In this document: positions 23,126 through 51,886 of the stretch, one piece after another
Numbering within the stretch: position 1 is the first letter of the stretch
How the letters are laid out: the number at the start of each line of letters is the position of its first letter
Assembly (NCBI GenBank): GCA_963740355.1
Contig: CAVUDW010000003.1
Coordinates: 480,001-544,000, forward strand
DNA length: 64,000 nucleotides
Origin: an uncultured Gemmatimonadaceae bacterium
GTDB taxonomy: Bacteria; Gemmatimonadota; Gemmatimonadetes; Gemmatimonadales; Gemmatimonadaceae
Reading direction: 5' to 3'
Notes under the pieces: generated by a model
The model's input: only the letters and a program-made list of their open reading frames with translations
The model's database searches: none
What the model was told of the DNA's origin: nothing
Program-made: the position numbers and the translations under genes

Positions 23126-23140
23126 TTTACGACGCATAAA
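23126..23140. promoter_or_regulatory. Operator TTTACG-ACG-CATAAA
   Basis: Matches five other copies; about 120 bp upstream of the Met-rich lipoprotein. Confidence 0.7.
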
Positions 23141-23619
23141 CGCGGCCATCGCTTCACATCCGTACATGTGCACCGGCCCCATGTGTCCGTCACGGCATCG
23201 GTCCGCATCATGTACGCACGCCGAGATAGGTGCGCTCCGGCATGCGTCTGGTGTGCTGGGACCTGAGACGTGCAGCACGTGCACACCGGAAGGCCGAACG
23301 GCGAGCCGGCATCGGTGACGCCAACGCTGCGCGCGACGCACAGCGAACCTCGTATCGCAAGTGCATATGGACATGTGCGCTGGGGAGATCGCGACCACGA
23401 GCGCGGATGGCTTTGGCGTTGACCACCGGCGTCAGCAGCACACCAATGGTGCAGGCGCAGACGCAGCAAGCGGAAGCGCAGCATGAGTGAATGGTGCGTC
23501 GCGCACGAGCGCATGACTCATCATCTCGTTGACGAGTACGGTGACCGACGTCAGTGGTGGTACGATTCGAGTATGCCTGCCCTATTGCCTCATGGGACGA
23601 TTCGCCCACCGACTACCGT

Positions 23620-24960
23620 GTGACGACGACGGTAGCTCAACCCGACATCGACGACGCGCTGCTCGACACGATTGAATGCCGCGCTCTCTGCTACTTCCTC
23701 GACATGGCACATCCGCTGACCGGCTTGGTCGCGGACAGCACGATGCCCGACACCGTCTGCAGCATTGCGGCGGTCGGCATGGCCCTCGGGGCGTACCCCG
23801 TCATGGTGGAGCGTGGACTGCTGTCGCGGGACGAGGCGGTCGAGCGTACCCTGCGCGTCCTTCGCTTCTTCCGCGACAGCCCGCAGGGCGAGGCTGCGGA
23901 CGCGACCGGGCATCGGGGCTTCTACTACCACTTCCTCGACATGGAGACGGGCCGACGGGCGTGGCGCTGCGAACTCTCGACCATCGACACGGCCCTGCTC
24001 CTCGCTGGTGCCCTTGCCGCTGCGTGCTACTTCGATGGGGACGCCGGGGGCGAGCCGGAGATTCGCACCGTCGCCGACGCGCTCTACCAACGAGTGGATT
24101 GGCACTGGGCACTGAATGGCGAACGAACGCTCACACACGGATGGCGACCGGAGTCGGGTTTCCTGCCCTACCGCTGGCGTGGATACGACGAGGCGCTGAT
24201 TCTGTACGTCCTTGCACTCGGCTCGCCGACGCACCCGATTACCGCCGACTGCTACACGGCGTGGTGCGCGACGTATGCGTGGAAATGCATCGACGGCCAC
24301 TGGCTGCTCTACGCCGGCCCGCTCTTCATTCACCACTTCTCCCACCTCTGGATCGATTTCCGTGGGATCCACGACGCGTTCATGCGTGACAAGTGTGCCG
24401 AGCTCGGCACGCCGTTCGACTATTTCGAGAATTCCCGCCGCGCCACACTCGTCCAAGGAGGCGTACGCCGTCCGCAACCCGCTCGGCTTTGCCGGCTATT
24501 GCGACTGCTGCTGGGGATTCACTGCCTGTCATGGCCCCGGCCCGGTCACGGAGGTCGTAGACGGCGTGGAGCGCCGGTTCCTCGGGTACAGCGCGCGCGG
24601 TGCGCCGTACGGGCCGGACGACGGTACGATTGCGCCGTGGGCGGCGGCCACCTCGCTCCCATTCGCCCCGGAGGTCGTGCTCCCCACGCTCCGCCGATTT
24701 CATGCGCTCCATGTTGGGGAGCGCAGCCGCTACGGGTTCGAGTCCGCATTCAACCCCACGTTTCCGGGGCAGGATGACGACGGAGGCGGCTGGACATGCC
24801 CCTGGGTCTACGGCATCGACCAGGGCGCGCTCGCGCTGATGTTCGAGAACCACCGCACGGGGCTCGTCTGGGATCGGCTACGGCGCTCGCCCCACCTGCG
24901 GGCCGGACTCCGTCGCGCCGGGTTCGACGGCGGGTGGTTGGACGCGCTGGCCGACTCCCG
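23620..24960 (+). pseudogene. Glycoamylase-like (GH144-related) protein, frameshifted near 24458
   Basis: SIAAVG, GFYYHF, ELSTIDT, W.GYDEA, GPLFIH, then second frame WGFTA, DDGTIAP, YGIDQG. Confidence 0.8.
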
Positions 24961-25042
24961 CCAGCGCCGTCAGTCCAGCTGCACAACCATCGCACTCGAC
25001 CTTGTCCTCGTCATCCTCACCACTCCTTCAGGCTCCATCGCC

Positions 25043-26122
25043 ATGACTGATCCTCGAACCATCCGCGTCGCCGTCAACGGCTACGGCGTCATCGGCAAGC
25101 GCGTCGCCGACGCAGTCGCTCTTCAGAACGATATGACGCTGGCCGGCGTCGCCGACGTGGCGACGGACTGGCGCGTCGCCGTGGCCCGCGCCAAGGACTA
25201 TGCACTATACGGTGCAACGCCCGAGCACACCCTAGCGATGACGGAGGCCAAGCTCGACCCGCCGGTCCCCTCGATGACCTGCTGAACGCTGCTACATCGT
25301 CGTGGACTGCACGCCGAAAAAAGTGGCCGCCCAGAACATCGCGCGCTATCGCGAGCGCAAGATTCGATTCATCCTGCAAGGTGGCGAACAGCACGCGGTC
25401 ACGGGGCACTCGTTCACGGCCAGAACGAACTACCACTCCGCACTCGGGCGCCACAGCACGCGTCGTGGTCGTGCAACACTACCTCGACGGTACGGACGCT
25501 CGCCGCGCTCAAGCGGCAGGTCTGCTCAAACGAGCGCGCGGCACGTTGCTGCGCCGTGCCACCGACCCGTGGGAGGCCACGCTCGGCGGCATCGTGAACA
25601 CCCTCGTCCCCGAGCCGGAAATTCCCAGCCATCAGGGTCCCGACGCGCAAACCGTCGACCCCGATCTCGATGTGGTGACGATGGACGGTCGAGGTGCACG
25701 GAGACCGTTGCGCATCTGCACTACTCTGGGCCGTGCAACTCACGCGAACGGCCTCGAAGGATGAGGTGCTCGCTGCCTTCCGCACCTCGACCCGCATTGC
25801 GTTCATGCACACGTCCGACGGTCTCGTCGCACTGAATTCAGTCAAGGAGCTGATGTCTGATCTCGGTCGACCCAACGCCAACCTCTACGAGGTCGCACTC
25901 TGGGCGGACATGCTGACTGTGCAGGGGGACGAGGCGTTCTACGCGTACATGGTCGATAATCAGGCCATCGTCATCCCCGAGACCATCGACGCCATCCGAG
26001 CGCTCACGGAACAGGAGGCGGACGGCGCGGAGTCGATCCGGAAGACCAATGCCGCCCTCGGTATCACGGGGCGATTGGTGCCCGAGTCAGGGCGTCACGT
26101 GGGCCCAGCGACGGTGATCTAG
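25043..26122 (+). pseudogene. Type II (archaeal-type) glyceraldehyde-3-phosphate dehydrogenase, several frameshifts
   Basis: VAVNGYGVIGKRVADAV, VDCTP, QGGE, SCNTTS (about 25470), RRATDP, PSHQGPD, NQAIVIPETIDAIRA spread across frames. Confidence 0.85.
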
Positions 26123-26162
26123 CCACGACTACCCCGCGTTCGATGCCAGCATAGTCGTCGTG

Positions 26163-28440
26163 TCAGCGGCTCTGCCACGGCGTCCACCGCCAGTCGCGCA
26201 CCTCTTTCATATCCTCGCCATGCTCGATCACGTACTCCCTGTGGCGGGCGATGGTGGCATCGTATCGCGCCGTGGCCCCGGCAACGAGATGCTGCAGTCG
26301 TGGAATGCGGCGGATCGCGTCCAACGCCAGGCGGTAGCGATCGACCTCGTTCAGCACGACCTGATCGAACGGTGTCGTCGTCGTGCCTTCGTCGATGTAG
26401 CCGCGAACGTGAATGTTCGCGTGGTTGGTCCGGCGATGCGTCAGCTTGTGGATCATCGCCGGGAAGCCGTGAAACGCGAAGATCAGGCGTGTCGGTCGTG
26501 AACAGCGCGTCGAACTGGCGATCGTCCAGGCCGTGGGTGTGCTCGCTGCCCGGCTGGAGCACCATCAGGTCGACGACATTGACGACGCGGACGCGCAGGT
26601 CGGGGACATAGTCGTGCAGCAACATGACGGCCGCCAGCGCCTCAAGCGTCGGCACGTCACCGGCGCAGGCCATCACGACCTCGGGCTCGCCCGCATCGCT
26701 GGCCCAGTCCCAGATACCCGCGCCCGCGGTGCAGTGGCGGACCGCTTCGTCCATCGTCAGCCACTGCCATTCGGGCTGCTTGCCGGCGATGATCAGTTGA
26801 CATAGCCTCGGCTGCGTAGCGCGTGATCGGCGACCGACAGCAGGCAGTTCGCATCCGGCGGCAGATAGATACGCGCGACGTCGGACGTTCGGTTGGCGAT
26901 ATGATCGATGAAGCCGGGGTCCTGGTGCGACTGGCCATTATGGTCCTGTCGCCAGACGTGAGAGGTCAGCAGATAGTTGAGCGACGCGACGGGCCTGCGC
27001 CACGCGATCCCGTTGCTGACCTTCAGCCACTTCGCATGCTGGTTGACCATCGAATCGACGATGTGGACGAACGCTTCGTAGCACGAGAACAGCCCGTGCC
27101 GCCCGGTCAGCAGATACCCCTCCAGCCAGCCCTGGCACAGATGCTCGCTTAGTACCTCCATCACGCGGCCATCCTGCGCGAGGTTGATATCAAGCGGCTG
27201 GGTTTCGGCCATCCACGTCTTGCCCGACACGGCATAGGTTGCGTCAAGCCGGTTCGACGCGGTCTCGTCAGGGCCGAACAGGCGAAAGTTTGCCGCGTCG
27301 AGGTTGAGCTTCATGACTTCGCGCAGGTACGAGCCGAGCACTCGGGTCGCCTCAGCCGACGTCGCGCCGGGCGCAGGGAAGCGCAACCGCATAGTTTCGA
27401 AAATCGGGCAGCGAGAGTGGCTTCAGCAGCGTCCCGCCATTGGCATGCGGGTTCGATCCCATCCGCCGTCGTCCGGTTGGCGCGAGCGAGGCATAATCCT
27501 CGCGCGCCTGTCGTCGTCGAACAGCTCGCCGTGCCTGTAGCTTTGCATCCAGTCTTCGAGCAACTCCAGGTGGCCGGGCTTGCTGAAATCCGAGATGGGT
27601 ACCTGGTGCGATCGCCACGTGCCCTCGACCGGCTTGCCGTCGACAAACTTCGGGCCGGTCCAGCCCTTCGGCGTTCCAAAGACGATCATCGGCCAGCGCG
27701 GGCGTCAGCGCAACTTGTACCGATCCCGGCCCAAGCGCCCGGCTGACTCGCGCTTATCTGCGCCAGTACGATGTCGAGTGTTCCGGCCAGCTGTTGGTGG
27801 AAGGCGTCGGATCGTCCCTTCAACAAAATGCGGCTCATAACCGTAGCCGCCAAACAGGGCGATCAGTTCGAGGCGGGGGATACGCTCAAGCATCGTCGGA
27901 TTGGCGATCTTGAAGCCGTTGAGTGCAGGATCGGCAACACTGCACCATCGCGGGCTGGGTTCAGGAATTTGTTGGAGTGCCAGCTGCCGGCCAACGCAGC
28001 CGTCTCAGCCTCGCCGTCACCAATAACGCAAGCGACGATCAGGTCCGGATTGTCAAACGCAGCGCCATAGGCATGCGCAAGCGAATAGCCGAGTTCGCCA
28101 CCTTCATGGATAGATCCGGGAATTTCGGGCGACACATGGCTCGATACGCCACACGGCCACGAAATTGGCGAACAGGCGATGCATACCGTCGCGGTGGCGC
28201 TTGATCGCCGGATAGGTCTCGGTATAGGTGCCCTCGAGATAGGTATTGGCGACGAGCCCCGGGCCGCCGTGACCGGGTCCGATGACGTAGATCATGTCCA
28301 GATCGTGCTCGACGATCAGCCGGTTGAGATGGACGTAAAGCAAGTTGAGACCCGGCGTCGTACCCCAGTGGCCGAGCAGACGCGGCTTGATGTCGGCCAG
28401 CGTCAGCGGCCGTTCGAGCAGCGGATTGTCGCGGAGGTAT
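26163..28440 (-). pseudogene. xfp: Phosphoketolase (xfp/xpk), many frameshifts, N-terminus lost
   Basis: [82 protein letters not shown] in alternating frames. Confidence 0.9.
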
Positions 28441-30642
28441 CGCGACGACGATGGTGCTCACGGACATCAGAATGGCGCCGACCGCCGGCGTCAGCACGAT
28501 GCCCCACGGCGCCAGCACACCCGCTGCGAGCGGAATCGCGACAATGTTGTAGCCCGCCGCCCACCACAGATTCTGGCGCATCTTGGCATACGTGGCGCGC
28601 GAGAGGTTGATGATGCGCGGCACATCGCGGGGATCGCTGCGCACCAGCACGATGTCGCCTGCCTCCACCGCGACGTCGGTCCCCGCGCCAATCGCGATAC
28701 CCACATCAGCCGTCACCAGCGCCGGTGCATCGTTCACCCCGTCGCCGACCATCGCCACGCGCTTGCCCTGCGCCTGCAGCTTCTGAATCTCCGCCGCTTT
28801 GCCTTCCGGCAACACCTGAGCAAGGACCGTGGTGATGCCAACCTCGTGTGCCACGGCGTCGGCGACGGCCTTTGCATCACCCGTCATCATCACGACCTCG
28901 ACACCCGCGTCCTGCAGCTGCTTCACGGCATCTGCGGCCTCTGGACGAATCGCGTCGGCCACGGCAAAGCTGGCGAGGACGACCGTGCCTTCGACGAGCG
29001 ATATCACGGCTTGCCCGAGTGCCGCCGCCTCGGTCGCGAACTCTCCGAACTCCGGTGCCGGCGAGACCTTGAGATCCGCCAGGAGGTTGGGGCCACCGGC
29101 CGACAGCGACCCGCCGGACACAGTGGCACTCACGCCACGGCCCGGAATCGTCGTGAAGTTCGTCGCAGCAGGCACCTCGAGCTTCCGATCCGCCGCGCTC
29201 TGCACGATGGCCTTCGCGACGGGATGCTCGGCATCGCGTTCCATGGAGGCTGCCAGACGCAGCGCCTCGTCCTCGCTGAGTCCTGACGTCGTGCGCACGC
29301 CCACGACACGGTGCTGGCCAAGTGTCAGGGTTCCCGTCTTGTCAAACACCACCGCCGTCAGGTTGCGCGCCTCTTCGAGGCCACGCCGGTCGCGAATCAA
29401 CAAGCCGTTCCTGGCGCCCATCGTCGTGGAAATCGCGAGCACGAGTGGCACCGCGAGGCCGAGCGCATGCGGGCACGCAATCACAAGCACCGTCACCAAT
29501 CGCTCGACGGCGGTGGCGAGCGTCGCACCGGACAGCAGCCACGCGGCGAAGGTGATGGCTCCGGCACCGAGCGCGACCCAGGTCAGCCAGAACGCCGCAC
29601 GATCCGCCAGCACCTGCGCGCCCGACTTCGACTTCTGTGCCTCAGCGACGAGGCGCATGATACCCGCCAGCGCGGTACGATCACCGGTACCCGTCACCGT
29701 GACCCGCAGAGAGCCGGCGCCGTTCACCGTACCGGCAATCACCTTCGCCTGTGCGGTCTTCTCGACCGGTGCCGATTCACCAGTGATCAGCGACTCATCG
29801 ACCTTACTCGTGCCGGACACCACCACACCATCGGCCGGCACATTCGCGCCCGGTCGCACGAGTACGGTATCGCCATCGTGCAGCTCGCTAATCGGCACGT
29901 CCTCGGTGGTCTCGGCACTGCCTTCACCGGTCACACGGACGGCCGTTGTCGGCAGCAACTTCGCGAGTTCGCCGAGGGCGCCTTCTGCCTGCGCCACCGA
30001 GCGCATCTCGAGCCAATGCCCGAGCAACATGATCGTGATCAGTGTTGCCAGCTCCTCCCACAACGGCATGGCGGGAAAGCCGAGGGCGACTGCTGCGCTG
30101 AATACAAAAGCCACGCTGATGGCGAGCGCAATCAGCGTCATCATGGCGGGCTGGCGATCCTTGATCTCGCCGACAGCACCGCGCAGAAACGGCGCGCCGC
30201 CGTAGACGAACAGCGCCGTGCCGAAGAGCGCCGGGATCCAGTGCGACCCAGTGAACGACGGCGGTGTGAAGCCCAGCGCGTCCGGGAGCATGTGCCCCCA
30301 GATCAGCGGCGGAATGGTCAGTGCAAGCGAAATCCAGAACTTGTCGCGGAACATCGCGACCGAGTGGCCAGCATGCTTGTCGTGGCCAGCGTGTTCGTCG
30401 TGCCCACCGTGCCCGGCGTGCGGATCAGGCGTCGTGTGCGTCGCCCCCCGTTTCATGCCGTGATCGGTGGCCATCTCGTGGCCCGCGTGCGTCTCTTGTG
30501 CGGTGTCGGTGTTCGGACTCGCCGTCGCGACCGTCTTCGGGGCCTCGGTGTGCCCGTCATGATCCGCATTCGGCGACACGCCGGACGCATCGACCGTCGA
30601 CGGAACGTCAAGCACGTGCGGTAGTCCATCTGGCTCACTCAT
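28441..30642 (-). CDS. copB: His-rich P1B-type copper ATPase (CopB-like), last about 10 residues replaced by fusion into xfp
   Basis: His-rich N-terminus, [28 protein letters not shown], MSxST. Confidence 0.88.
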
Positions 30643-30868
30643 GCGCTCGCCACCGGCAGAAGAACATGATGCGCGTCGTGCGGCCAGAATGCTCGGCGCG
30701 CGACGGCAGCAAGACTACCAGTCTACACGATGACGAGACGCATCCTTGGCTGTGCTTGCCACACTCACGCGCGAAGATGCGTCGCGGAGACTTATCGGTG
30801 TAGGTGCGCGAGTGCGTCCACGTCATCGCGCGCGACGACGACCGGATCGACGGGACGAGCACATTGAT

Positions 30869-31138
30869 TCATCGCCCCTCGATATCCCGTTCCCCTGGGA
30901 CGACACGCGTACGCCGGCCTTCGCCCGGGTGACTGATCGCCTCGTACAGGCGTTCACCTTTGAGCAGCAACTCCTGCATCAAGCCGGTGAACTCGACGGG
31001 CGTGAGCTCGCTGGCCGTTTGGGGGACCAGGCCTTTGAGCAGCGCGATTCGGTCCGCGAGCGGGAGTTGATTCGCATGGTCGATCAGCGCACGCAAGGCG
31101 GTGTAGTTGAGATTCGCGGTCTCTGCACTCGTCGTCAT
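30869..31138 (-). CDS. Hypothetical helical protein
   Basis: 89-aa ORF co-oriented 6 bp after copZ. Confidence 0.6.
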   Translation of the reverse strand: MTTSAETANLNYTALRALIDHANQLPLADRIALLKGLVPQTASELTPVEFTGLMQELLLKGERLYEAISHPGEGRRTRVVPGERDIEGR

Positions 31139-31144
31139 CGTCGC

Positions 31145-31351
31145 TTACCCCGCCGCGACGGCAAATCCCGCCTGCACAATCGCGTCACGCAGCGCGGCAG
31201 GATTCGTGGATTCGGGGTCATACGTCACTGCGGCGGCACCAACTGTCACGTTCGTGTCGGTCACACCGGGCACGTTCGTGAGCGCGCGACGAACACTGTT
31301 CACGCACCCGCCACAACTCATTCCTGTGATCGATATTGTTGTCTGCTCCAT
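31145..31351 (-). CDS. copZ: Copper chaperone (HMA domain)
   Basis: GMSCGGC motif; 68 aa; GGAG RBS. Confidence 0.92.
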   Translation of the reverse strand: MEQTTISITGMSCGGCVNSVRRALTNVPGVTDTNVTVGAAAVTYDPESTNPAALRDAIVQAGFAVAAG

Positions 31352-31631
31352 TGCTGTCTCCGGTCGTGACGCTGGATGAGCGTACAGGCACTAACACGGC
31401 TCTCGCCTCAACAAGGTACCGTCTGCAGCATTACCCGCTCGTCACGAGCTTCGGTCCACGACGCATCATCCGCGGTCATGAACAATGCATGTGCACGCTG
31501 ATCTGGCGACGCGTCGACGGCGAACGAGCCCTACCGCTGGAATCGCGTATCGGTACGGCTGCCACGTGGAATACCCGCAGCGGTGGCCGGCAGCATCGTC
31601 GCGCACAAGACGACGCGAGGCTCTCCAGCCC

Positions 31632-32087
31632 TCAGCGGTCGAGATCGCGGATCAGTTCCTTCATCTCGGCGATCTCGCGCACCTGTGCCTCGATGATCCC
31701 GTCGGCCAGTTTCCGGACGCGGGGATCGGAAATGTGCGCGCGCTCGCTCGTCAGGATGGCAATCGAGTGATGTGGGATCATCGCCTTCATCCACGACACA
31801 TCTGTCACCGTGGCCTGGCTCCGCACGAGCCAGAGCGCGACGGTAAACACCAATGCGCTCCCGCCAAGGATCCAGGCGTTCAGTCGAGTATAGCTGTACA
31901 TGCCGCGCATGGACACGAGCATGATCACTGCCATGGTGGCGCCCATCACGACTGCCATCCAGGCGCGTGTCTGGCTGAAGAACACATGGTCCAGCGCATA
32001 CGTATTCAGATACATCAAGCAGAACATGACCACGGTTGAGACCGTGATCATGCCAGCGAAGCGCCGGTACGGATTCGTTGAATTCAT
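31632..32087 (-). CDS. DUF305 domain membrane protein (copy 1)
   Basis: MIPHHSIAI...LA..II.AQ.REI.EM; N-terminal TM helices. Confidence 0.88.
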   Translation of the reverse strand: MNSTNPYRRFAGMITVSTVVMFCLMYLNTYALDHVFFSQTRAWMAVVMGATMAVIMLVSMRGMYSYTRLNAWILGGSALVFTVALWLVRSQATVTDVSWMKAMIPHHSIAILTSERAHISDPRVRKLADGIIEAQVREIAEMKELIRDLDR

Positions 32088-32175
32088 CCGCTAACTCCTT
32101 TGTATCGTCGAGGGATGATTGCGTGCCGCTGGCGCACCGAGCCAGCAGTGCGGTCGAGTGGCCGCTGGTGGGACG

Positions 32176-32338
32176 CTATAGCTCAGTGCGCCGCAGCAGT
32201 TGCACGTTCGCAGCCACGATGATCGTGGACGGTGACATCAGGCCGGCAGGTATCTGCAGGCGCTGTTGCGTGAGACATCGCGTGTCGCGCGTGCGTGTCG
32301 CATGTCATGGTGCTCTCGTACATCGCATGATCCTCCAT
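32176..32338 (-). pseudogene. Internally deleted copB remnant (first about 30 and last about 20 codons only)
   Basis: MEDHAMYESTMTCDTHARHAMSH resembles the copB copy 2 start MDEHAMHGHSMPADTPMGHGMSH; followed by LMSPSTIIVAANVQLLRRTEL*. Confidence 0.8.
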
Positions 32339-32345
32339 CAACGTT

Positions 32346-33319
32346 TCAGTGTGCGGGGGTGCCGAGCGGCGCGGTGATACCGGCGGCGAGTACCGACGCG
32401 ATCTGGGCGCGCACCCATCCCTGATGGGTGAGTGGTAAATGATGCGTCGCACCATGCTGCACCCGAATGACACAATTCGGGTGCACGGCCTGCAACTCGA
32501 CCATGCGCTGCAGCGGCGCGCTGTCATCCGCATCGCCATGCAGGCAGAGGAACGGCGTCGTCGCCGGGATCCGGCGGACGGCGGCCGCGCGAGATCATAT
32601 CCGTAGATCACTTCCCAAATCGTGGACGTCGAGGACCGCCATGTCATTTGTGTGAGATCCTCGGCGACCTCGCGCGGCACACTGCTGATCAGGTAGGGGA
32701 ATGCCCAGCCGAGCAATCGCCGACTGAACAGGCACATCAACGCCATCGGCACGAGATGCGTCCAGATCCAGCCATTCGCGCCCTTGTCGCGGAAGAAGCG
32801 CTTCGCCTGCTCCGCGTCGCCGAAGAACGGAAGGCTGACCAGCACCAAACGCTCGATCTGCTCCGGATAGCGGGCGGCGTAGGCAATCGCGAGCCGCGCG
32901 CCGAGCGAATGTCCGACGAGGATGATGCGCCCGACGGGCGCGAGAACGCGGTGGAGTTCGCTGATGTGTCGCTCGACGTCATACGTCGTCCACGGCTTCG
33001 GTGACCGACCGAATCCGAGCAGGTCGATCAGCAGATGACGTCCGGGGAGCGATGGACCGGCGCCGGTCGTCAGGACGTACGTCCAGAAGCGCGTCGTCGC
33101 GCCGATGCCGGGCAGGAAGACGATGGTCGGCGTGCCGTCGCCGTCCACGGTCGTGAAGAGCGGACGACCGCCGTCCGTACCGCGATCCGCGTCCACGACC
33201 GCGAGCGCCGCCGACGCCGTCAGGAGTACCCCTATCCCGCCACCGACCCGACGAAGCATCGTCCGCCGCGACAGTCGCCCTTCTTCCGCCACGGCCGCCA
33301 GCGGCTCGGGCCCGGTCAT
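32346..33319 (-). pseudogene. Tat-signal alpha/beta hydrolase, frameshift near 32587
   Basis: SRRTML, DLLGFGRS, GHSLG; alternate frame gives LHGDADDSAP and ATHHLPL then stop at 32346. Confidence 0.8.
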
Positions 33320-33825
33320 TTCATGCGGGCCATCATGCCAGCGTGCAACGTGCCTAGCTGACGAACACGCGCCGTATGCGCAGGCATCATGCTGCGGAGC
33401 GACTCCCCGCTCTGGTCGGGCATCATCACCAGATCCTGCCGAACAGAGTCCACGAGCGCTGTCCAACCGGCATCCGCAGGCATGTGCATCTGGCGCATCT
33501 CGCCGTTCATCTGGGACAGCATGGTGGCGACCATCTGCCGATGACCCGGGATGAGTGTACGCATCGTCGCGGCGTCCGCGGAACCCATGCTGCGCAGTTG
33601 GCTGTCCATCTCCGGCGAGAGTCCGTTCATCATGCCGAGCATGCCCGGCGCCGAGTCCGGCTCACTCGTCGTCATGCCGCGCATGCCGTTCATCGGCCGT
33701 GCGTCCGCCGCTACCATCGGCGACTTATCCCCTGCGGCACGATCCGGCGATGTCTTCGAGCACGCCATCACAAGCAGCACAGATGACGCGACACGGCAGA
33801 TCCTGACAGCCCATCGATTCGGCAT
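33316..33825 (-). CDS. Met-rich lipoprotein (paralog 2)
   Basis: Lipobox VMAC; shares H..MV..MLSQM..M, W.AL.DS.R.DL, MMPAH with 22478-23005. Confidence 0.72.
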   Translation of the reverse strand: MPNRWAVRICRVASSVLLVMACSKTSPDRAAGDKSPMVAADARPMNGMRGMTTSEPDSAPGMLGMMNGLSPEMDSQLRSMGSADAATMRTLIPGHRQMVATMLSQMNGEMRQMHMPADAGWTALVDSVRQDLVMMPDQSGESLRSMMPAHTARVRQLGTLHAGMMARMK

Positions 33826-33848
33826 TCGATCTCCAGTGGAGTGTGGTG

Positions 33849-37016: not shown

Positions 37017-37018
37017 GG

Positions 37019-40161: not shown

Positions 40162-40549
40162 GAAAGGAAAGGTACATGTGCCGTGACGGCCTCCGGCACC
40201 CGAGGACACGACGCCGAACACTCCGACCCGGCCCGCTGTCCGGCTCTGTCGACCCCCATGAATGGAGGGAACCCGGGGTCCTGCCGATGAATCGCGCTCG
40301 GGCCGTCCGGTGATTCGCACGGGCGCCCGCGGCGAATGCGCGGACAAACCGGGATTCCGCGGCCGTCACCCGGGACGCAAGGCAGCACCGCGTGCGCCGT
40401 CCTCGGCAGCCGCTTCAGTGTCAGCGGCGTCCGTCACCGAAGCATCGCGGCCGCCGAGCCCCCCAGGAACACAGCGGACACTCGCGCATCGCTGCCACGC
40501 AGCGTTGCGGACGCCACCATCGGCGCCGCTCCTGTTGAAATGGAGCCGC

Positions 40550-41164
40550 ATGTCCACCCCCCCGCCTTCCCTCGGTGCGCTGCTCGCGGCCGTCACCGCC
40601 GCGTGCACTCCCGCCGACCGCGACGCCGCCGTTAGCGCCCTCTTCGTCGCGGCGCGGCCGGTCCTGATCCCGGTCTGCGACGCCGTGCTGCAGCGCGCTC
40701 CCGGCGCGCATTGGCACTCGGCCGAGGATCTTGCCCAGGATGTCTTGGTCGACACCCTCCCCGCCCTGCAGCGCGGGGCGTGCCCGACGACGACCAACAA
40801 TGGCCTCGTGCGCTTTCTGCGCACGGTGGCCACGCGTCGCCTCATCTCGGCCGCACGGCCGCAGACGGGTGTGACGCCATTCGACCTCGCGGAGGTCGTG
40901 CTGGCGCTGCACGCCGCCAATGCGGTGGGGGATGATGCCGATGATCCCGACGCGCAGCGGCGCGCCGAAATCCGCCAGCTCTACAACGTCGTACTCGGCG
41001 AAGTACCAGAGGCGTTCGCGACCACGTGGCGCGTCGTCGTCGAACAGGAACTGCCGAAGACCGCTGCCGCCGCCGCACTCGGGATCGACCGCGGCACGGT
41101 GCACCGCCACGTCACGGCGGTCCGTACGCATCTCGCGTCTCGGCTCAGCGCCTTCGCGCCGTGA
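40550..41164 (+). CDS. Divergent ECF-type sigma-70 factor
   Basis: Region 2 SAEDLAQDV...FLRTVATRRLI; region 4 HTH AAAALGIDRGTVHRHV. Confidence 0.7.
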   Translation: MSTPPPSLGALLAAVTAACTPADRDAAVSALFVAARPVLIPVCDAVLQRAPGAHWHSAEDLAQDVLVDTLPALQRGACPTTTNNGLVRFLRTVATRRLISAARPQTGVTPFDLAEVVLALHAANAVGDDADDPDAQRRAEIRQLYNVVLGEVPEAFATTWRVVVEQELPKTAAAAALGIDRGTVHRHVTAVRTHLASRLSAFAP

Positions 41165-43396: not shown

Positions 43397-43428
43397 CGAC
43401 GACGGCACCAGCGAGGACAAAGATCGCA

Positions 43429-44932: not shown

Positions 44933-44948
44933 GGAGCGGATCATCGCG

Positions 44949-45122: not shown

Positions 45123-45578
45123 TTATCGGTCGAGATCACGGATCAGCGCCTTCATCTCGCCGATCTCGCGCACCTGTGCCTCGATGATTCCATCGGCCAG
45201 CTTCCGCACGCGAGGATCGGAAATGTGCGCGCGCTCGCTCGTCAGGATAGCAATCGAGTGATGTGGGATCATCGCCCTCATCCACGACACGTCGCCCACG
45301 GTCGCCTGGCTGCGCACAAGCCAGAGCGCGACGGCGAACACCACGGCGCTGCCGCCGAAGATCCAGGCGTTCAGTCGGCTATCGTTGTACATGCCGCGCA
45401 TGAACACCAGCATGATCACCGCCATCGTCGCGCCCATCACCAGGGCCATCCAGGCGCGCGTCTGGCTGAAGAACACATGATCCAGCGCATAGGTATTCAG
45501 GTACATCAAACCGAACATGACCACGGTTGAGACTGCGATCATGCCAGCGAAGCGCCGGTACGGACTAGTGGAATTCAC
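45123..45578 (-). CDS. DUF305 domain membrane protein (copy 2)
   Basis: Near-identical to copy 1; GTG start. Confidence 0.88.
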   Translation of the reverse strand: MNSTSPYRRFAGMIAVSTVVMFGLMYLNTYALDHVFFSQTRAWMALVMGATMAVIMLVFMRGMYNDSRLNAWIFGGSAVVFAVALWLVRSQATVGDVSWMRAMIPHHSIAILTSERAHISDPRVRKLADGIIEAQVREIGEMKALIRDLDR

Positions 45579-45761
45579 TCTTTACGTCCTGTGCATTGTT
45601 GAGTGACGATTGCGCGACGCTGTTACCCGGTGGCCGCTGTTCGAGTGTGTCTGGTGGCAAGCCTTGCGCCAGTCGCAGACGCATCCGCCCGGACGGCTTC
45701 CGGGTGCCGCGCAGCTACCACACCAGGCGAGCGCCACTGTCGAGAAACCTGCGGTGCCACG

Positions 45762-47868
45762 CTACAACTTCGCGCGCCGCAGGAGTTGCGCGTTCGCGGC
45801 CACGATGATCGTGGAGAGTGACATCAGACCCAGCCGCCATCGCCGGCGTCAGCGTGAGTCCCCACCGCGCGAATACCCCAGCCGCAAGCGGAATCGCGAC
45901 GACGTTGTATCCTGCGGCCCACCACAGATTCTGTACCATCTTCCGATAGCTGGCGCGTGAGAGCGTGATGATACGCGCCACATCGCGTGGATCACTGCGC
46001 ACCAGCACCACGTCGCCCGCCTCGACCGCGACGTCGGTGCCGGCACCAATCGCGACACCGACGTCAGCCGTTACCAGCGCTGGCGCATCGTTCACGCCGT
46101 CGCCCACCATCGCGACGCGCGTTCCGGCCTTCTGCAGCGCTTCGATCTTCGACGCCTTGTCCTGTGGCAGCACCTGCGACAACACGGTCGTGATGCCGAG
46201 TGTCTTCGCGACGGCGTCGGCCACCGCCTTCGAGTCGCCAGTCATCATCACCACGTCGATGCCCGCCTTCTGCAGCGCCATCACCGCGGCAGCCGACTCA
46301 GGCCGGACCGCGTCCGCGACCGCGAAGGCCGCGCGCGCCTGACCACCTTCGACCAGGTAGATCACGCCCTGGCCCTTCGCGGCTGCATCACGCTCGAACG
46401 CCGAGAGGGCCTGAGACGGCTGGACCTTCAGCTGTGCCAGCAGGTTCGGCCCGCCGACCGAGAGTGCACGACCTTCCACAGTCGCGCTGACACCGTGCCC
46501 AGGGATGGCCATGAAGGTCGTCGCCACCGGCACGTCGAGCTTTGCATCAACCGCACTCTGGACGATGGCACGTGCGACGGGGTGCTCGGCGTCGCGCTCG
46601 ACGCTTGCGGCGAGGCGCAGCGCATCTGCCTCAGTCATGCCATCGAGCACCTGCGTCGCGACCACGCGGTGCGCGCCGAGCGTGAGCGTGCCGGTCTTGT
46701 CGAAGACTACGGTCGTGAGATTCCTCGCGTCCTCGAATCCGACGCGATCACGCACCAACAGCCCATTCCGCGCGCCGAGCGTGGTCGAGATCGCAAGCAC
46801 CAGCGGCACGGCGAGGCCGAGGGCGTGCGGGCACGCGATCACGAGCACCGAGACCAATCGCTCCACCGCCATGGCCGGCCCGGCACCGAGGCTGATCCAG
46901 ACCACGAACGTCATTAGGCCGCATCCCAGCGCGACCCAGGTCAACCAGAATGCGGCGCGATCCGCCAGTGCCTGTGCGCGCGACTTCGAGTTCTGCGCCT
47001 GCTCCACCAGCCGCATGATCCCCGCGAGCGCGGTGCGGGTCCCGGTCCCAGTGACCTCGATTCGCAGCGACCCGGAGCCGTTGACCGTGCCCGCCAGCAC
47101 CTTCGCCCCGACCGTCTTCCCGACCGGGGCCGATTCGCCCGTCACGAGTGCCTCGTTCACGGCGCTTTCGCCGGCGCGCACCACGCCATCGGCAGGAATC
47201 GCTGCCCCAGGGCGGACCAGCAGCATGTCCGCATCGAGCAGCACCGTGACCGGCACATCCTCGAGCGTCTCGGAGGGGCCCTGCCCCGTCACGCGCGTCG
47301 CCATGTCGGGCAGCAATTTCGCGAGCTCGCCCAACGCGCCCTGCGCCTGATTGATCGAGCGCATTTCGAGCCAGTGGCCCAACAGCATGATCGTCACGAG
47401 GGATGCCAACTCTTCCCATAGCGGCATACCGGGAAATCCGAACAGCACTGCCGCGCTGAATGCGAAGGCCACACTGATCGCGAGGGCGATCAAGACCATC
47501 ATCCCAGGCAGGCGGTCGCGGACTTCCTGTAGCGCGCCTCGGAGAAACGGAAGGCCCCCATAGGCGAACACCGCCGAGCCGAACAGCGCCGGGACGTACG
47601 TGACGCCGGGGAACGCCGGCGCCGTGTAGTGCAGCGCGCTCTGCAGCATGTGGCCCCACACCAGCGTCGGAATCGTCAGCACGAGCGAGATCCAGAACTT
47701 GTCCCGGAACATCGCCACGGAGTGACCGGCATGCCGACTGTGCCCGCTCGCCATGGCGTCGTGGCCACCGTGCGGCTCGGGCGTTCCGCTGGGTGGCGAG
47801 TGAGACATGCCATGCCCCATCGGCGTGTCGGCGGGCATTGAATGCCCGTGCATCGCATGTTCGTCCAT
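45762..47868 (-). CDS. copB: CopB-like P1B ATPase (copy 2), +1 frameshift in CCC at 45829-45831 near the C-terminus
   Basis: [20 protein letters not shown]; removing one base restores LMSLSTIIVAANAQLLRRAKL*. Confidence 0.88.
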
Positions 47869-47951
47869 CGATCTCCTCCGCGGCGGGCGCGCCGGTCTGT
47901 GGACGCGCCGGTTCAGCGCTTCCTCGGCACGCTCTTGAGAAGTGCCGGGCA

Positions 47952-47966
47952 TTTATGCATCATAAA
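47952..47966. promoter_or_regulatory. Operator TTTATG-CAT-CATAAA
   Basis: Dyad between the divergent copB copy 2 and the BlaI-like gene. Confidence 0.75.
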
Positions 47967-48007
47967 GGATCGCGTTCCTTCCCGCGCCGAACTCTCGAGG
48001 TCCCTCC

Positions 48008-48499
48008 GTGGTGAAACGCAAGTCCCCCAGCGCCGGAACCGGCGGCTCGGCAGGATCACCCGCAGCTCGTGTACCCGTGACTCCACAGTTGCAGGACACG
48101 GTCCGTCTCTCCGCGGCAGGGCTTGCGAAGGTGCTTGGCGATCTCGAGGCGCGCGTGATGCGCGCCGTGTGGGCGCTCGCGCGTCCGGTCAGCGCTCGGA
48201 TCGTGCATGAGGAGGTTGCACGCACGCACGCCGTCGCGCTGCTGACGGTGGTCACCGTACTCAACAAGCTCGTGACCAAGCGCATGCTCATTCGCAAGTC
48301 ACAGGATGGGCTGTTGCACTTCGAGGCGTTGATGAGCGAGCAGGCGTTCATGGCGCATGCCAGCCGACGCGTCGTGGAAGGGATCCTGTCATTCGATCCT
48401 GATGCCGTGGCTGCGTCGTTCGTCGACGTCCTCGCGTCGCGCGATCCCGCGCAACTCGAAGAGCTCGCGCGCCTCATACAGCAGCGCTTGGCGCCCTGA
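48008..48499 (+). CDS. BlaI/MecI/CopY-family transcriptional repressor
   Basis: LGDLEARVM..VW...TV.TVLNKL..K winged HTH; no cysteines. Confidence 0.9.
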   Translation: MVKRKSPSAGTGGSAGSPAARVPVTPQLQDTVRLSAAGLAKVLGDLEARVMRAVWALARPVSARIVHEEVARTHAVALLTVVTVLNKLVTKRMLIRKSQDGLLHFEALMSEQAFMAHASRRVVEGILSFDPDAVAASFVDVLASRDPAQLEELARLIQQRLAP

Positions 48500-48536
48500 C
48501 GGCCACGCCGAGCCGAATACTGTGACGCCCCCCGTC

Positions 48537-49580
48537 ATGCGCCGCGAGTTCCTCCGCCGGACCGTGGAAGGTCATGAGGCGCGACATCGGCGTCGCGTGC
48601 TGGTCGTGACCGGCATCCTCACACTCGTCGCGATCAGTCCGGTGCTAGGGCACCACCTGACCACACGACTGACCTCCGCGTTCGCGGGCTACGAGCACAT
48701 TTGGATCGTGTGCCTCGTTGCGCTGCACGAGTTGCTGGCGCCGGTGCATACGGCATTTCACATCTTGCTGCTGGCTGGGATTACTTACGCCGTGGCCGAC
48801 CGCACGCGAGCATGGTACCGCGTTCGGCGAACGCTGCGGGTGCTCGAGTCGCGACCGGCGACGCCTGACGACACCGTCTGGTCGGCCAGTGAAGCGAGCG
48901 GCATCCCGGTTGACGTGCTCCGACTGGCGAGCGGGCTGCCGAATCCTGCATTCACGACTGGCTGGCTAAGCCCCGTCATCTACGTCGATACGCAACTTCA
49001 ATCGGCGCTGACGGAGCGGCAACTCGCCGCGGTCCTGCTGCACGAGTATGCGCACGTGCTTCGTCGTGACCCTGCGCGACTGACACTGTTGCGCGCGCTC
49101 GGCTGCCTGTTGTTCTGGCTCCCCGCGTTACGCCGCCTCGCACGGGACGTCGCCGACGATGCCGAGATTGCGGCCGATAATTTTGCAGCGCGAGGCGACC
49201 CGGTCGTGCTGGCGTCAGCGATCCTGCGGCTCGCACAGTGGCCTTCACTCGACGGGCGACAGGCACAGTCCGACCTCCCCGACAACGGGCGCAGCGTCGT
49301 CGGATTTCAGCGCGACGTGATGCTGGACCGCCGCATTCACCGACTGCTCGGCAACGACGCGCCGATTGTGACGCATGTGACGTGGCGATCCATCTTTGCG
49401 GCCAGTGTCGGGTTGATGCTTGCCTGGTCGTCGGGGATGGCAGTCGCCCATCCCATGACCGACGCGAGCAAGCACTGCACCCATCAACATGAGTGGGCGT
49501 ACGAGCACCTGTTCTGCCTTGCGGAGCGCCCGGATGGGCAGGATACGATTTGCCCGCACGAGCGCCGCCTCGCGCCCTGA
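48537..49580 (+). CDS. M56 (BlaR1/MecR1-like) membrane metallopeptidase
   Basis: AFTTGWLSP.I, LLHEYAHV.RRDP, E..AD, L..RI.RL; His/Cys-rich tail; no penicillin-binding domain. Confidence 0.88.
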   Translation: MRREFLRRTVEGHEARHRRRVLVVTGILTLVAISPVLGHHLTTRLTSAFAGYEHIWIVCLVALHELLAPVHTAFHILLLAGITYAVADRTRAWYRVRRTLRVLESRPATPDDTVWSASEASGIPVDVLRLASGLPNPAFTTGWLSPVIYVDTQLQSALTERQLAAVLLHEYAHVLRRDPARLTLLRALGCLLFWLPALRRLARDVADDAEIAADNFAARGDPVVLASAILRLAQWPSLDGRQAQSDLPDNGRSVVGFQRDVMLDRRIHRLLGNDAPIVTHVTWRSIFAASVGLMLAWSSGMAVAHPMTDASKHCTHQHEWAYEHLFCLAERPDGQDTICPHERRLAP

Positions 49581-49677
49581 ACACCGTCGGAGCGGTCAAC
49601 GTGACATCAGGCTCGCGACACAAAGCTGCTACATCCGGATCACCCCCTGCCGTTCAACCATCTCGCACGAGTTTTCA

Positions 49678-50205
49678 ATGCTCGCCCTCCTCGGCATTCT
49701 CGCGGCGCTCAGCGCTTCGTCCGCCCATCCCACTGCTGAGGGCATGCCCCGCGCGTCAGCAACGGCGCCGCGCCTCGGTATGATCGCCACGGTTGTCGCG
49801 AGCTCAACCGCCCTGGCCGTCAGTGATTCCGCAGACGTGGCTCAGGTGGTCGCGGCCTTCCATGCCGCCCTTGCCGCCGGCGACGGCGCGGCAGCGCTCC
49901 GGTTGCTGGCTCCCGACGCCATCATCCAGGAGAGTGGTGGCGTCGAGTCTCGAGCCGACTACGAGAGCCATCACCTGTCCGGCGACATCGAGTTCGCGCG
50001 GGCCGTGCCGTCGACGCGGAGCGCACTCCGTGTCGTCACCGACGGCAATGTTGCATGGATCTCGAGCACCAGCGTGACGAAGGGCACGTTTCGCACTCGC
50101 GCCATCAATTCGGTCGGCGCCGAGCTCATGATCCTGTCACGCACGAGCGGCACGTGGCGCATCCGAGCGATTCACTGGTCGTCTCGAGCAGCCAAGGGGG
50201 CGTGA
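49678..50205 (+). CDS. Exported NTF2/SnoaL-like (DUF4440) protein
   Basis: V.AFH.AL..GD...LLAPDA.I.E.G..E, W.I.AIHWSS. Confidence 0.8.
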   Translation: MLALLGILAALSASSAHPTAEGMPRASATAPRLGMIATVVASSTALAVSDSADVAQVVAAFHAALAAGDGAAALRLLAPDAIIQESGGVESRADYESHHLSGDIEFARAVPSTRSALRVVTDGNVAWISSTSVTKGTFRTRAINSVGAELMILSRTSGTWRIRAIHWSSRAAKGA

Positions 50206-50240
50206 CGACCGGTCGCGTGTAGGAGCAATCCTCCGCACGC

Positions 50241-50281
50241 TTGACGCGGCGTAAAGGGCTCAATAGTTTAGGCACCGTAAA
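50241..50281 (+). promoter_or_regulatory. Sigma70 promoter overlapped by two operator copies
   Basis: -35 TTGACG (50241), 17 bp, -10 TAGTTT (50264); dyads TTGACG-CGG-CGTAAA and TTTAGG-CAC-CGTAAA. Confidence 0.65.
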
Positions 50282-50403
50282 GCCGGATGGGTTCGCTTGC
50301 CTCGACGTTCGTGAATCGATGTGCAGGAATCCAGGCACGCGGTATCGGTCATCGCAGCGTGGTGACCAGCGTCTGACGGCTTCACGTTCGCGCGGAGAGC
50401 GTT

Positions 50404-51204
50404 ATGAGCTTCTCGTCTGCTGCTGCAAGGTTGGATGCGATTGCGCCGTTGAATTCCCTGCTGCGTCTGCGATATCAGCGGCGGTTCCGTACAGCACATG
50501 GGGCAGGTTGCTGGTCCGGCGTATACCCGAGCTTTTCCACGGCGCTCCAGGCTGCGCCGCGATCCGCACCTGTGGGATACGATCACTCGAGCGCCGCCAC
50601 GCTCTACGATGACATGCTGGATCGCGTGCAGCCGAAGGACTATCCAGTGCTCTACTGGCTTCGTCGCTGTCTGCGCCCGGGCGCGTCGCTCTTCGATTTC
50701 GGTGGGAGCGCTGGCGTCTCGTTTTACGCGTATCGTCGCTATGTCGCCGATCTGGCACCTGATCCATGGATCGTGTGCGACACGCCCTCTGTCGTAGAGG
50801 TGGGCCGCGCGCGCGCCGCCCGTGGCGATGCGAATCAACTGCGATTCACGAGTGAGTTCGCTGACGCAAGTGGATGCGACGTGCTGTTTACTGCGGGCAC
50901 ACTTCAGTATGTGGAGCCGTCATTCCACGACATGGTGACAGGGCTTCCGCGAAAGCCGGATCACATCATCGTGAACATGCTGCCAACGCTTCCCGACAGA
51001 ACGATCATCACGCTGCAGAACATCGGTGTGAGTTTCTGCCCTTACCGAATCATCGAGCGAGGCGCGCTTGCTCAATCGCTTGAATCCGTGGGCTACGCGC
51101 TCGAAGATTCGTGGGTGAACCCCGAGGGGCGTACAAAGCTTCCGTATGCGGAAGGGGTGCCGGAGATCACGTGGATCGGCCAGTATTTCAGACGCACAAG
51201 CTGA
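50404..51204 (+). CDS. Putative SAM methyltransferase (TIGR04325-like)
   Basis: DYPVLYWL, FDFGGSAG..FY, W.VCD.P, GTLQY, TLQNIG. Confidence 0.75.
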   Translation: MSFSSAAARLDAIAPLNSLLRLRYQRRFRTAHGAGCWSGVYPSFSTALQAAPRSAPVGYDHSSAATLYDDMLDRVQPKDYPVLYWLRRCLRPGASLFDFGGSAGVSFYAYRRYVADLAPDPWIVCDTPSVVEVGRARAARGDANQLRFTSEFADASGCDVLFTAGTLQYVEPSFHDMVTGLPRKPDHIIVNMLPTLPDRTIITLQNIGVSFCPYRIIERGALAQSLESVGYALEDSWVNPEGRTKLPYAEGVPEITWIGQYFRRTS

Positions 51205-51247
51205 TCTCCTCGCGCGCGCGGTCTGTGATTGCCTTCGCGCCGTTTCG

Positions 51248-51742
51248 CTATCTCGGCGCGGCAGTCTGCGGCCTCGGACAGGGATGCGAGTAGTGGATGT
51301 GTCGCACCACCCACGTCGAGTCGCGACGCACCCACACCATAGTCTCATTGCCGGCGGCCGTGATCGATTTACCCTTGACTGTCGCGCGGATGTCGTACTC
51401 GCGCGTGACGAGCGCCATGTCCGGTCCCGCGGTGACGCGCACGTTGCTGAAAGTCGCGGTGGCGTTGTCGAACTCCTCGACTTCGGGACGGAGGTGATTG
51501 TCCCAGACATCCTGCAGGCCGACGTTGCGGACGCTGTGCTCGTACAACACGACGTCGTCGGCCAGCATCGCCTTCAGAGCGACGAGATTCTTCGATGTCA
51601 TCGCGACGTTCTAGCGCTCGACGGCCGCCCGCACCGCCGCCTCTGGGGCTTGCGCACCGAGCCTATCGCCGGTCGTACCAAGCACGGCGGCTCCGAGGGC
51701 AAGGACCAGTGCGCGATGGCGAAGGAATTGGCGACTCGACAC
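51248..51742 (-). pseudogene. Exported NTF2/SnoaL-like protein with in-frame TAG at 51611-51613
   Basis: GGAG RBS + GTG 51742, signal peptide, AAVRAAVER*NVAM, then DVVLYE, GNETMVW, W.V.HIHYS. Confidence 0.75.
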
Positions 51743-51789
51743 GGGGACGCTCCAGGGCGACGGGGGAACTTCGGCACGACACCAGGTGT

Positions 51790-51886
51790 TTTATGCGCCA
51801 TAAACTCGCTGGCGGTTCTGCGCATGTCAAGCGACGCGGGCGCATTGACGGCGGCAGCGTCAAGATACTATTTTATGACGCGTAAA
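51790..51886. promoter_or_regulatory. Two operator copies in the divergent promoter region
   Basis: TTTATG-CGC-CATAAA (51790-51804) and TTTATG-ACG-CGTAAA (51872-51886). Confidence 0.75.

Follow-up and report, generated by a model that had tools for sequence, protein, structure and literature searches.

In a stretch of 64,000 nucleotides from an uncultured Gemmatimonadaceae bacterium (assembly GCA_963740355.1, contig CAVUDW010000003.1, positions 480,001 to 544,000; hereafter the window) we found an inverted repeat, TTTAYG-N3-CRTAAA, in front of genes for copper export, oxidation, storage and binding. This 15-bp dyad is very probably the operator of a BlaI/CopY-family repressor encoded at 48008, whose gene is followed by one for a BlaR1-like M56 membrane protease. 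In the explanation that we develop here, the protease reads copper for the repressor, in a way similar to PetR/PetP of Synechocystis sp. PCC 6803. Taken as a whole and set beside its rivals, this explanation is likely to be right.

A pattern search with TTTAYGNNNCRTAAA (TTTAYG-N3-CRTAAA) gave exact matches in the window at 23126, 47952, 51790 and 51872. Two copies with one mismatch were found at 50241 and 50267, 26 bp apart. Shuffling the window with its dinucleotides preserved gave 0.00 exact and 0.01 one-mismatch matches as expectation. Because shuffles of a window with 66% G + C are a weak null model for an AT-rich word, we added a search of the whole genome (5,447,502 bases, 65% G + C, five contigs, with the window being positions 480001 to 544000 of contig 3). 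The exact dyad was present four times in the genome, and the same half-sites spaced by 1, 2, 4 or 5 nt gave no match genome-wide. A zero-order model predicted 0.126 exact dyads for the genome, and from the counts of half-sites (250 left, 262 right) 0.012 pairs were expected at the N3 spacing. Four observed copies against 0.012–0.126 expected indicate that the dyad is real and far beyond chance.

A weight matrix was trained on 29 sites from relatives, with none from the genome itself. Seven genome positions scored above 17 bits, and six of them were the dyad copies of the window. The next-best position in the window had 8.1 bits and lay within cusB. The seventh, position 1758432 of contig 2 (18.5 bits), and its neighbour (14.2 bits) were rejected as operators, being parts of a tandem repeat with a unit of ~124 bp and having TTTTCG, which is off the consensus. 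This repeat is an intergenic array outside the window (contig 2, ~1758300–1758650), each unit of which contains atcaaggggtcagagatcttgatcg, and it holds two weak look-alikes of the dyad. A position on contig 3, 217833, reached 16.3 bits at the stop/start junction of two metabolic-looking genes. An inverted-repeat scan found no other dyad common to the four promoter regions. The CopY box TACAnnTGTA was absent from the 64-kb window, as was the stricter core TTTAC-N5-GTAAA, the latter because each exact site has at least one TTTAT half. Rfam gave no matches in the window at gathering thresholds.

A sequence-only reading of the window had listed the same six copies, called all of them intergenic, placed two on a -35/-10 pair and proposed a genome-wide motif check. 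The copies stand where it put them, four exact and two with one mismatch, and each is outside the genes supported by third-position G + C. The check confined the exact dyad to the window (4/4). A scan for sigma-70-like promoters between 47800 and 52000 gave two matches against 0.8 expected, each overlapping an operator copy, namely those at 47952 and 51872 (Table 1). The -10 element of the blaI promoter, CATCAT, is within the copy at 47952, and that of the tolC promoter, TATTTT, runs 3 nt into the copy at 51872.

The copy at 47952, in the divergent copB/blaI intergenic region, was 41 nt from the GTG of the repressor gene (48008) and 83 nt from the probable ATG of copB (47868, preceded by GGAGGAG). 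The copy at 51872 was 19 to 70 nt ahead of the TolC start, for which the candidates were TTG 51906 and an ATG at 51957, 57 nt into that frame. At 51790 the distance to the GTG (51742) of a minus-strand gene for a secreted SnoaL/DUF4440 protein was 47 nt, and at 23126 it was 120 nt to the ATG (23005) of a gene for a Met-rich lipoprotein. The copy at 50241 was located between snoaL_A and a methyltransferase gene, and the one at 50267 was 122 nt ahead of the methyltransferase ATG (50404). These two were the weakest, with about 17.9–18.0 bits versus 22.8–28.0 for the other copies.

The dyad overlaps the promoter of the repressor’s own operon, the position expected from autoregulation in BlaI, MecI and CopY, and this arrangement is conserved in relatives. 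When the regions upstream of blaI were aligned by eye, a -35 element TTGnnn preceded the dyad at a constant 11 nt. The blaI-adjacent sites had CAT as their central triplet, which there makes up the -10 element jointly with the right half-site. This accounts for a spacer that is conserved at blaI but varies elsewhere.

Orthologues of the 48008 repressor were found in 17 of 40 relatives (56–79% identity, E ≤ 1.4e-44). In 14 of the 17 loci the repressor gene was preceded, at a distance of no more than ~150 bp, by a dyad with at most one mismatch. A further locus, L014, had a two-mismatch dyad upstream of the repressor gene and a one-mismatch site behind the protease gene. The divergent neighbour varied among relatives, being a copB-type ATPase gene, abhydrolase-copM, or Met-rich lipoprotein-csp. 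Since the neighbour varies while the dyad stays, the dyad tracks the repressor operon and not one neighbour. The exact dyad was found in 11 of the 17 relatives with an orthologue and in none of the 23 without (including G011, G014, G016 and G018, from the same genus), counts that overstate independence because the relatives are kin, and for which we therefore give no P value. The reversed control pattern occurred in one of 41 genomes.

The 11 relatives held 21 exact copies, all placed at three types of target. Twelve were in the intergenic region ahead of blaI-blaR1, four ahead of tolC-MCO(-copCD) (MCO, multicopper oxidase; G001, G003, G017 and G019), and five ahead of Met-rich lipoprotein-csp (G001, G010, G013, G015 and G019). 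The lipoprotein orthologues downstream of the dyad were 66–96% identical. In G001, G010, G013 and G019 the site orthologous to the copy at 23126 lay 117–122 nt before the same gene.

The distance from operator to lipoprotein start was 117–122 nt in five loci (window 23006–23125, L008, L010, L034 and L041), which suggests a conserved leader. This leader had no match in Rfam.

We then compared the dyad with the protease gene in an even sample of 301 genomes from the phylum, calling the protease by a profile of 40 homologues (E ≤ 1e-30). It was found in 25 genomes: G000, 22 of the 69 others in the window’s family, two of four in another family and none of 227 elsewhere. The exact dyad was present in 17 of the 25 genomes with the protease and in six of the 276 without, whereas the reversed control pattern was found in 3/25 and 25/276, respectively. 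Sixteen of the protease-bearing relatives had the dyad, and in 14 of them it was on the same contig as the protease gene and no more than 7 kb away. These tallies include the unpublished G185, without which they are 16/24 and 13/15. Among the genomes with both protease and dyad, G098 and G165 each consist of a single contig and belong to another genus of the family. In other genera of the family, the repressor-protease pair was flanked by MCO, copC/copD, tolC, snoaL, copM or ATPase genes. Dyads with up to two mismatches were found in 18 of the 23 loci examined there, often between the protease gene and copC, and snoaL_B-like genes adjoined blaI together with motif-like sites.

The dyad could in principle be no operator at all, but an AT-rich element of promoters, a mobile-element end or a product of chance. 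Its half-sites are AT-rich and -10-like, part of one copy serves as the -10 of the blaI promoter, and motif-like words are found in the 124-bp repeat of contig 2. This explanation is hardly credible, given the strict symmetry, the fixed spacer and the excess of exact copies described above. Moreover, the dyad is conserved over at least 12 genera while its flanks diverge, the reversed control lacks any association with the protease, and the words on contig 2 deviate from the consensus and are within repeat units.

The sequence-only reading had named the dyad as the binding site of the 48008 repressor. Four comparative lines speak for this: its position at the orthologues, its presence and absence along with them, the lack of a site at paralogues, and the failure of the other regulators of the window to track it. 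Regarding paralogues, the genome has four PF03965 genes including 48008, and the dyad was absent from the loci of the three others.

With respect to other regulators, the dyad might be bound by a MerR/CueR-like protein (58387), an ECF-like protein (40262) or an unlinked factor, with blaI being merely co-regulated. The first two are encoded in the same island, and an unlinked factor of matching phyletic distribution would be compatible with the comparative linkage. However, an orthologue of the MerR protein, 95% identical, is present in G016, which has neither the dyad nor a repressor orthologue, and close orthologues (≥74%) occur in just two of the 11 dyad-bearing relatives. The ECF-like gene is present in G014, which has no dyad, and was not found at E ≤ 1e-20 in seven of the 11 dyad-bearing relatives. 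We therefore rejected these two proteins as binders of the dyad on their phyletic pattern. MerR regulators usually bind a dyad inside a long -35/-10 spacer. A 6-3-6 dyad overlapping or abutting the -10 element is unlike this, and also unlike the -35/-10 pair of an ECF sigma factor. In addition, of 16 genomes from other genera, 14 have the dyad at most 7 kb from blaI-blaR1. Binding by any of these three candidates thus seems highly improbable.

The matches to the ECF-like gene (40262–41164) in G001, G014, G019, G009 and G006 contained one to three in-frame TGA codons, while the copy in the window was open. These codons could reflect a frameshifted alignment, two genes or recoding.

The repressor matched PF03965 with 70 bits (cut-off 22.6) over residues 43–159, which places it in the BlaI/CopY family. 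Its nearest solved relative was 2G9W (E 8e-6). In 31 repressor orthologues the recognition region T..TVLN.L..K was conserved. The likeness to CopY drawn by the sequence-only reading holds for the Pfam family, but it is inexact. The C-terminal CxCx4CxC/CxC site of CopY was absent, with no Cys in the 163 residues and none conserved in the 31 orthologues, and the CopY_TcrY model (TIGR02698) gave 29.9 bits, below its cut-off of 121.95. PetR/PetP is a nearer comparison. Together with the missing TACAnnTGTA box, these results make direct sensing of the CopY kind unlikely.

Nevertheless, the dyad could be the 48008 operator and the repressor still sense copper itself, with the protease having another role or tuning its turnover. 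Besides the shared Pfam family, CopY_TcrY is the best, though weak, NCBIfam match of the repressor, and its His and Met residues could in principle bind metal. Next to the lack of a CopY site, the protease with its invariant His/Cys set stays behind the repressor in every locus examined. We regard direct sensing as quite improbable.

The protease gene starts 37 nt after the repressor gene. The 347-residue product carries an HEYAH motif and matched PF05569 (48.5 bits, cut-off 31) and PF01435, consistent with an M56 protease of the HExxH type. A penicillin-binding sensor domain was not found, the NCBIfam BlaR1 models giving 19.5–20.9 bits against cut-offs of 400–1200. By Foldseek, the best PDB matches of an AlphaFold model (predicted local distance difference test, pLDDT, 76.7; predicted TM-score, pTM, 0.72; core confident) were cryo-EM structures of Staphylococcus aureus BlaR1 (8EXP, 8EXS, 8EXT and 8EXQ; E 4e-4 to 8e-4; TM relative to the query about 0.43); ZMPSTE24 came next. 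Homologues of the protease came from sources named Gemmatimonadota or Gemmatimonadaceae, and carried no annotation beyond “M56 family metallopeptidase” or “Zn-dependent protease with chaperone function”.

In an alignment of 40 homologues (46–74% identity to the 48537 protein), residues H39, H40, H54, C59, H71, H75, H169, E170, H173, H305, H313, C314, H324, C327, C339 and H341 were invariant, and D53 was nearly so. After the last hydrophobic segment there is a C-terminal tail of 44 residues with six His, three Cys and one Met. The N-terminus has eight Lys/Arg in 20 residues. Hydropathy and charge suggest a cytoplasmic N-terminus, a 16-residue outer loop with the HH...DH residues, a cytoplasmic protease domain, a last helix at 285–304 and then the outer 44-residue tail. 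The loop, between the first two membrane helices, and the tail are probably both periplasmic.

We lean toward a mechanism in which this protease senses copper, the repressor is cleaved and the regulon is derepressed. A dimer of the 48008 repressor would silence five promoter regions by occupying the -10 element or the DNA next to it. The regions would be those of blaI-blaR1-snoaL_A (divergent from copB-copM), Met-rich lipoprotein-csp, snoaL_B, tolC-MCO-copCD and perhaps the methyltransferase gene. The signal would be read by the co-transcribed protease (48537–49580), not by the Cys-free repressor. Its short His/Cys tail, in place of the beta-lactam-binding domain of BlaR1, and its HH...DH loop would bind copper and activate the cytoplasmic HExxH protease, which would cut the repressor and release the regulon, as in PetR/PetP of Synechocystis. 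A more general proposal is that Gemmatimonadaceae sense periplasmic copper in this way, using an M56 protease with tail and loop in place of a two-component system, CueR or an ECF sigma factor, and that repressor cleavage frees a whole regulon through one 15-bp operator. For this we see the odds as evenly balanced. The regulon released would then comprise the efflux ATPase, TolC-multicopper oxidase-CopCD, Csp, the Met-rich lipoprotein and the secreted SnoaL-fold proteins.

As to the members of the regulon, the genes that the sequence-only reading had listed downstream of the dyads are indeed at those positions, except that the methyltransferase gene is insecure as a target. Its homologues were found in six relatives, with synteny in G009 only (61% identity). 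Upstream of the gene in G009, and in six other homologue loci, sites with up to two mismatches were absent, and we rejected the gene as a conserved target. A paralogue in the same genome had one two-mismatch word, within its coding region. Judged from these comparisons, the methyltransferase is the least secure candidate member.

The repressor might also act in both directions, as PetR does. The sites at blaI and tolC would then repress, and those ~100 nt or more from their gene (lipoprotein-csp, methyltransferase) would activate or be relics. PetR is reported to act as an activator at petJ, where its site is at the -35, and as a repressor at petE, where the site falls between the -35 and the -10. 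The degenerate, non-conserved copies at 50241 and 50267 and the lack of a promoter-like match near 23126 would fit such a scheme. On the other hand, the site ahead of lipoprotein-csp is near-consensus and at a constant distance in the five loci, which argues for a function, if not for its sign, and copper excess is expected to call for all targets at once, in keeping with a single sign of control. We consider control in both directions unlikely.

Several points weigh against repression of one regulon by this repressor-protease pair. Six of the 17 orthologue-bearing relatives had no exact dyad. Four of the six had a one-mismatch dyad at the repressor locus, immediately upstream of blaI in three cases, and the other two, with loci L017 and L018, had none there with up to one mismatch. 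In the phylum sample, eight of the 25 protease-bearing genomes lacked an exact dyad and six protease-less genomes had one, and the kinship of the relatives tempers all such counts. The copies at 50241 and 50267 had no counterpart in G009, the one relative with the same snoaL-methyltransferase arrangement. Since no sigma-70-like promoter was found around 23126, repression there is only assumed, and as PetR can also activate, some of the dyads might be activating sites. The cusCBA-abhydrolase-copM-ATPase block (28039–39720) was without a dyad in its own genome, so the regulon does not span the whole island; in several relatives, the abhydrolase-copM-ATPase part of this block adjoins blaI, with a dyad in between. 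In the protease, the hydropathy of residues 180–198 was borderline (1.5), and the tail would be periplasmic only if these do not span the membrane. The tail itself (residues 301–347) was modeled with a pLDDT of only 52–59.

PetR/PetP is the closest known system, likened here by published description rather than by sequence. A preprint and a PNAS commentary present PetR as a BlaI/CopY-family regulator without the CopY copper site, and PetP as a protease of the M48/M56 kind from which the sensor domain of BlaR is missing. PetR degradation depends on copper and PetP, its operator has the core GACN5GTC (GACA-N3-TGTC), and the PetRP regulon consists of four genes (bioRxiv 10.1101/2020.07.31.226407; PMC7896320). 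By these accounts, both systems have, in one operon, a BlaI-family regulator free of the Cys motif and then a membrane M48/M56 protease without a beta-lactam domain. Both have an inverted-repeat operator with a 3-nt core spacer, and both are linked to copper, here by inference. The operators differ, however, as the GACN5GTC core was not found in TTTAYG-N3-CRTAAA and only the 3-nt core spacing is common. The targets are petE and petJ in PetRP, and copper export, oxidation, storage and binding genes here. In PetP, the loop that joins the second and third helices contains two conserved Met; the loop considered here (residues 39–54) has no Met but has the invariant H39, H40 and H54. The PetRP genes overlap, while those described here are 37 nt apart and belong to another phylum, Gemmatimonadota.

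With CopY/TcrY of the Lactobacillales the system shares, by the published accounts at hand, the Pfam family, a short dyad, and a copper P-type ATPase gene plus its own gene as targets. CopY, unlike the 48008 repressor, senses Cu(I) via its C-terminal CxCx4CxC/CxC and binds TACAnnTGTA, of which there is none here, and a partner protease comes in addition. A 2024 review describes CopY, in the passages accessible, as confined to a few Firmicutes (PMC11672702). BlaI/BlaR1 and MecI/MecR1 of Staphylococcus and Bacillus likewise combine a repressor with a membrane zinc protease and have the operator on their own promoter. The pair in the window differs from them in having no penicillin-binding domain, and in neighbours that are copper genes, not those for beta-lactamase or PBP2a. 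From sequence comparison, the pair would thus work like PetR/PetP, and not like CopY or a beta-lactam BlaR1, while its operator, targets, proposed ligands and phylum set it apart from PetRP. Our search of the literature, with subscription papers thinly covered, turned up no account of copper resistance under the control of a BlaI/M56 pair, nor of this dyad.

Genes were called from third-position G + C and then by Pfam and NCBIfam (Table 1). The content of the regulon (copB, MCO, CopC, CopD, CopM and Csp) fits the label “copper regulon” given to it by the sequence-only reading. The Csp-type protein had 44 bits with TIGR04401, under the cut-off of 100, and the Met-rich lipoprotein had no match in Pfam or NCBIfam. 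The gene order blaI-blaR1-snoaL_A was preserved in relatives.

Table 1 Predicted operators, promoter-like sites and genes in the window.
Feature	Position	Strand	Sequence or support
Csp-type Cys-rich copper storage protein (DUF326), four-helix bundle, no signal peptide	22035–22406	-	Pfam 40.6 bits, cut-off 20.4
Met-rich lipoprotein, 175 aa, lipobox-like LMAAC	22478–23005	-	Translation
Predicted operator, copy 1	23126–23140		TTTACGACGCATAAA; exact, 23.8–24.0 bits
Second block: cusCBA, Met-rich paralogue, alpha/beta hydrolase, CopM/DUF305, two small ORFs, P1B ATPase	28039–39720		
CopM/DUF305, downstream of copB	45123–45578	-	Pfam/NCBIfam
copB-type P1B ATPase, His/Met-rich N-terminus, CPH motif	45715–47952	-	Probable start 47868
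Promoter-like site, repressor operon	47935–47963	+	TTGAGA, 17 nt spacer, CATCAT
Predicted operator, copy 2	47952–47966		TTTATGCATCATAAA; exact, 27.7–28.0 bits, top score of the genome
BlaI/CopY-family (Penicillinase_R) repressor, 163 aa, no cysteine	48008–48499	+	PF03965
M56/M48 membrane metalloprotease, BlaR1-like, 347 aa, HEYAH	48537–49580	+	PF05569, PF01435
snoaL_A, DUF4440/SnoaL_3, signal-like N-terminus, third gene of the repressor operon	49489–50205	+	Pfam; probable start 49678
Predicted operator, copy 3	50241–50255		TTGACGCGGCGTAAA; one mismatch, 17.9–18.0 bits, genome rank 6
Predicted operator, copy 4	50267–50281		TTTAGGCACCGTAAA; one mismatch, 17.8–18.0 bits, genome rank 7
TIGR04325-family methyltransferase, doubtful regulon member	50404–51204	+	NCBIfam 181.7 bits, cut-off 80
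snoaL_B, secreted DUF4440/SnoaL protein	51248–51742	-	Pfam; in-frame TAG 51611–51613
Predicted operator, copy 5	51790–51804		TTTATGCGCCATAAA; exact, 22.7–22.8 bits
Promoter-like site, tolC operon	51845–51874	+	TTGACG, 18 nt spacer, TATTTT
Predicted operator, copy 6	51872–51886		TTTATGACGCGTAAA; exact, 25.3–25.5 bits
Operon tolC-like/multicopper oxidase/copC/copD	51906–55979	+	Pfam/NCBIfam
tolC-like outer membrane protein	51906–53405	+	
Multicopper oxidase	53418–54776	+	
copC	54876–55262	+	
copD	55320–55979	+	

Some of the genes in the island appeared broken. The final ~25 codons of copB read on in another frame: in 45715–45800, on the minus strand, it is the +1 frame that carries on with the conserved ending (LMSLSTIIVAANAQLLRR...). 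At 28039–28500, also on the minus strand, the other P1B ATPase (867 aa) ends with ~140 residues of low-complexity sequence. Both ATPase genes lack the expected C-terminal helix, which looks like the result of single-base indels, either assembly errors or real decay. In snoaL_B, the in-frame TAG splits the signal-like peptide from the domain, even though an exact operator stands 47 nt upstream; it is a nonsense mutation, a base error or a case of read-through. A glucoamylase-family gene (23554–25285) was split across two overlapping frames, and a phosphoketolase (XFP) gene on the minus strand (26119–27689) was left as four fragments.

Upstream of the island (9283–15562) there is a type I restriction-modification system with hsdR (9283–12429) and hsdM (13592–15562), accompanied by a UvrD-like helicase fragment, and this may point to acquisition or shuffling of the island by mobile DNA. 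At its right end (57350–59192), a gene for a MerT-like membrane protein is divergent from that of the MerR/CadR/CueR-like regulator, followed by ynfA. This second metal module had no copy of the dyad. Secreted SnoaL-fold (DUF4440) proteins were steady neighbours of the repressor-protease pair and copC in several genera (L049, L057, L058, L062–L065 and L071). We know of no role of the SnoaL/DUF4440 fold in copper biology.

The transcriptional responses of bacteria to copper are attributed to CueR, CsoR, CopY, CusRS/CopRS and CorE. To our knowledge, the cyanobacterial switch between plastocyanin and cytochrome c6 is the only case in which a BlaI-type regulator is documented to be controlled by proteolysis. 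A 2023 review, in the sections available, states that PetRP does not control copper homeostasis genes, and that the role of the BlaR homologues of heterotrophs is still to be elucidated (PMC10141476). If our explanation is true, an entire regulon for copper resistance would follow PetRP-like logic in a soil phylum that is widespread but has received little study, and the system would combine a well-defined operator with a metal-binding module unlike that of PetRP. The BlaR homologues of heterotrophs, called unexplained in that review, would thereby gain a function. The explanation yields definite predictions, which concern six sites and five promoters as well as 13 invariant His/Cys residues, and the pair may offer synthetic biology a compact, orthogonal copper-responsive switch. 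It would also place secreted SnoaL/DUF4440 proteins and a Met-rich lipoprotein in copper biology, and would add another paradigm for how diderm bacteria sense metals at the envelope.

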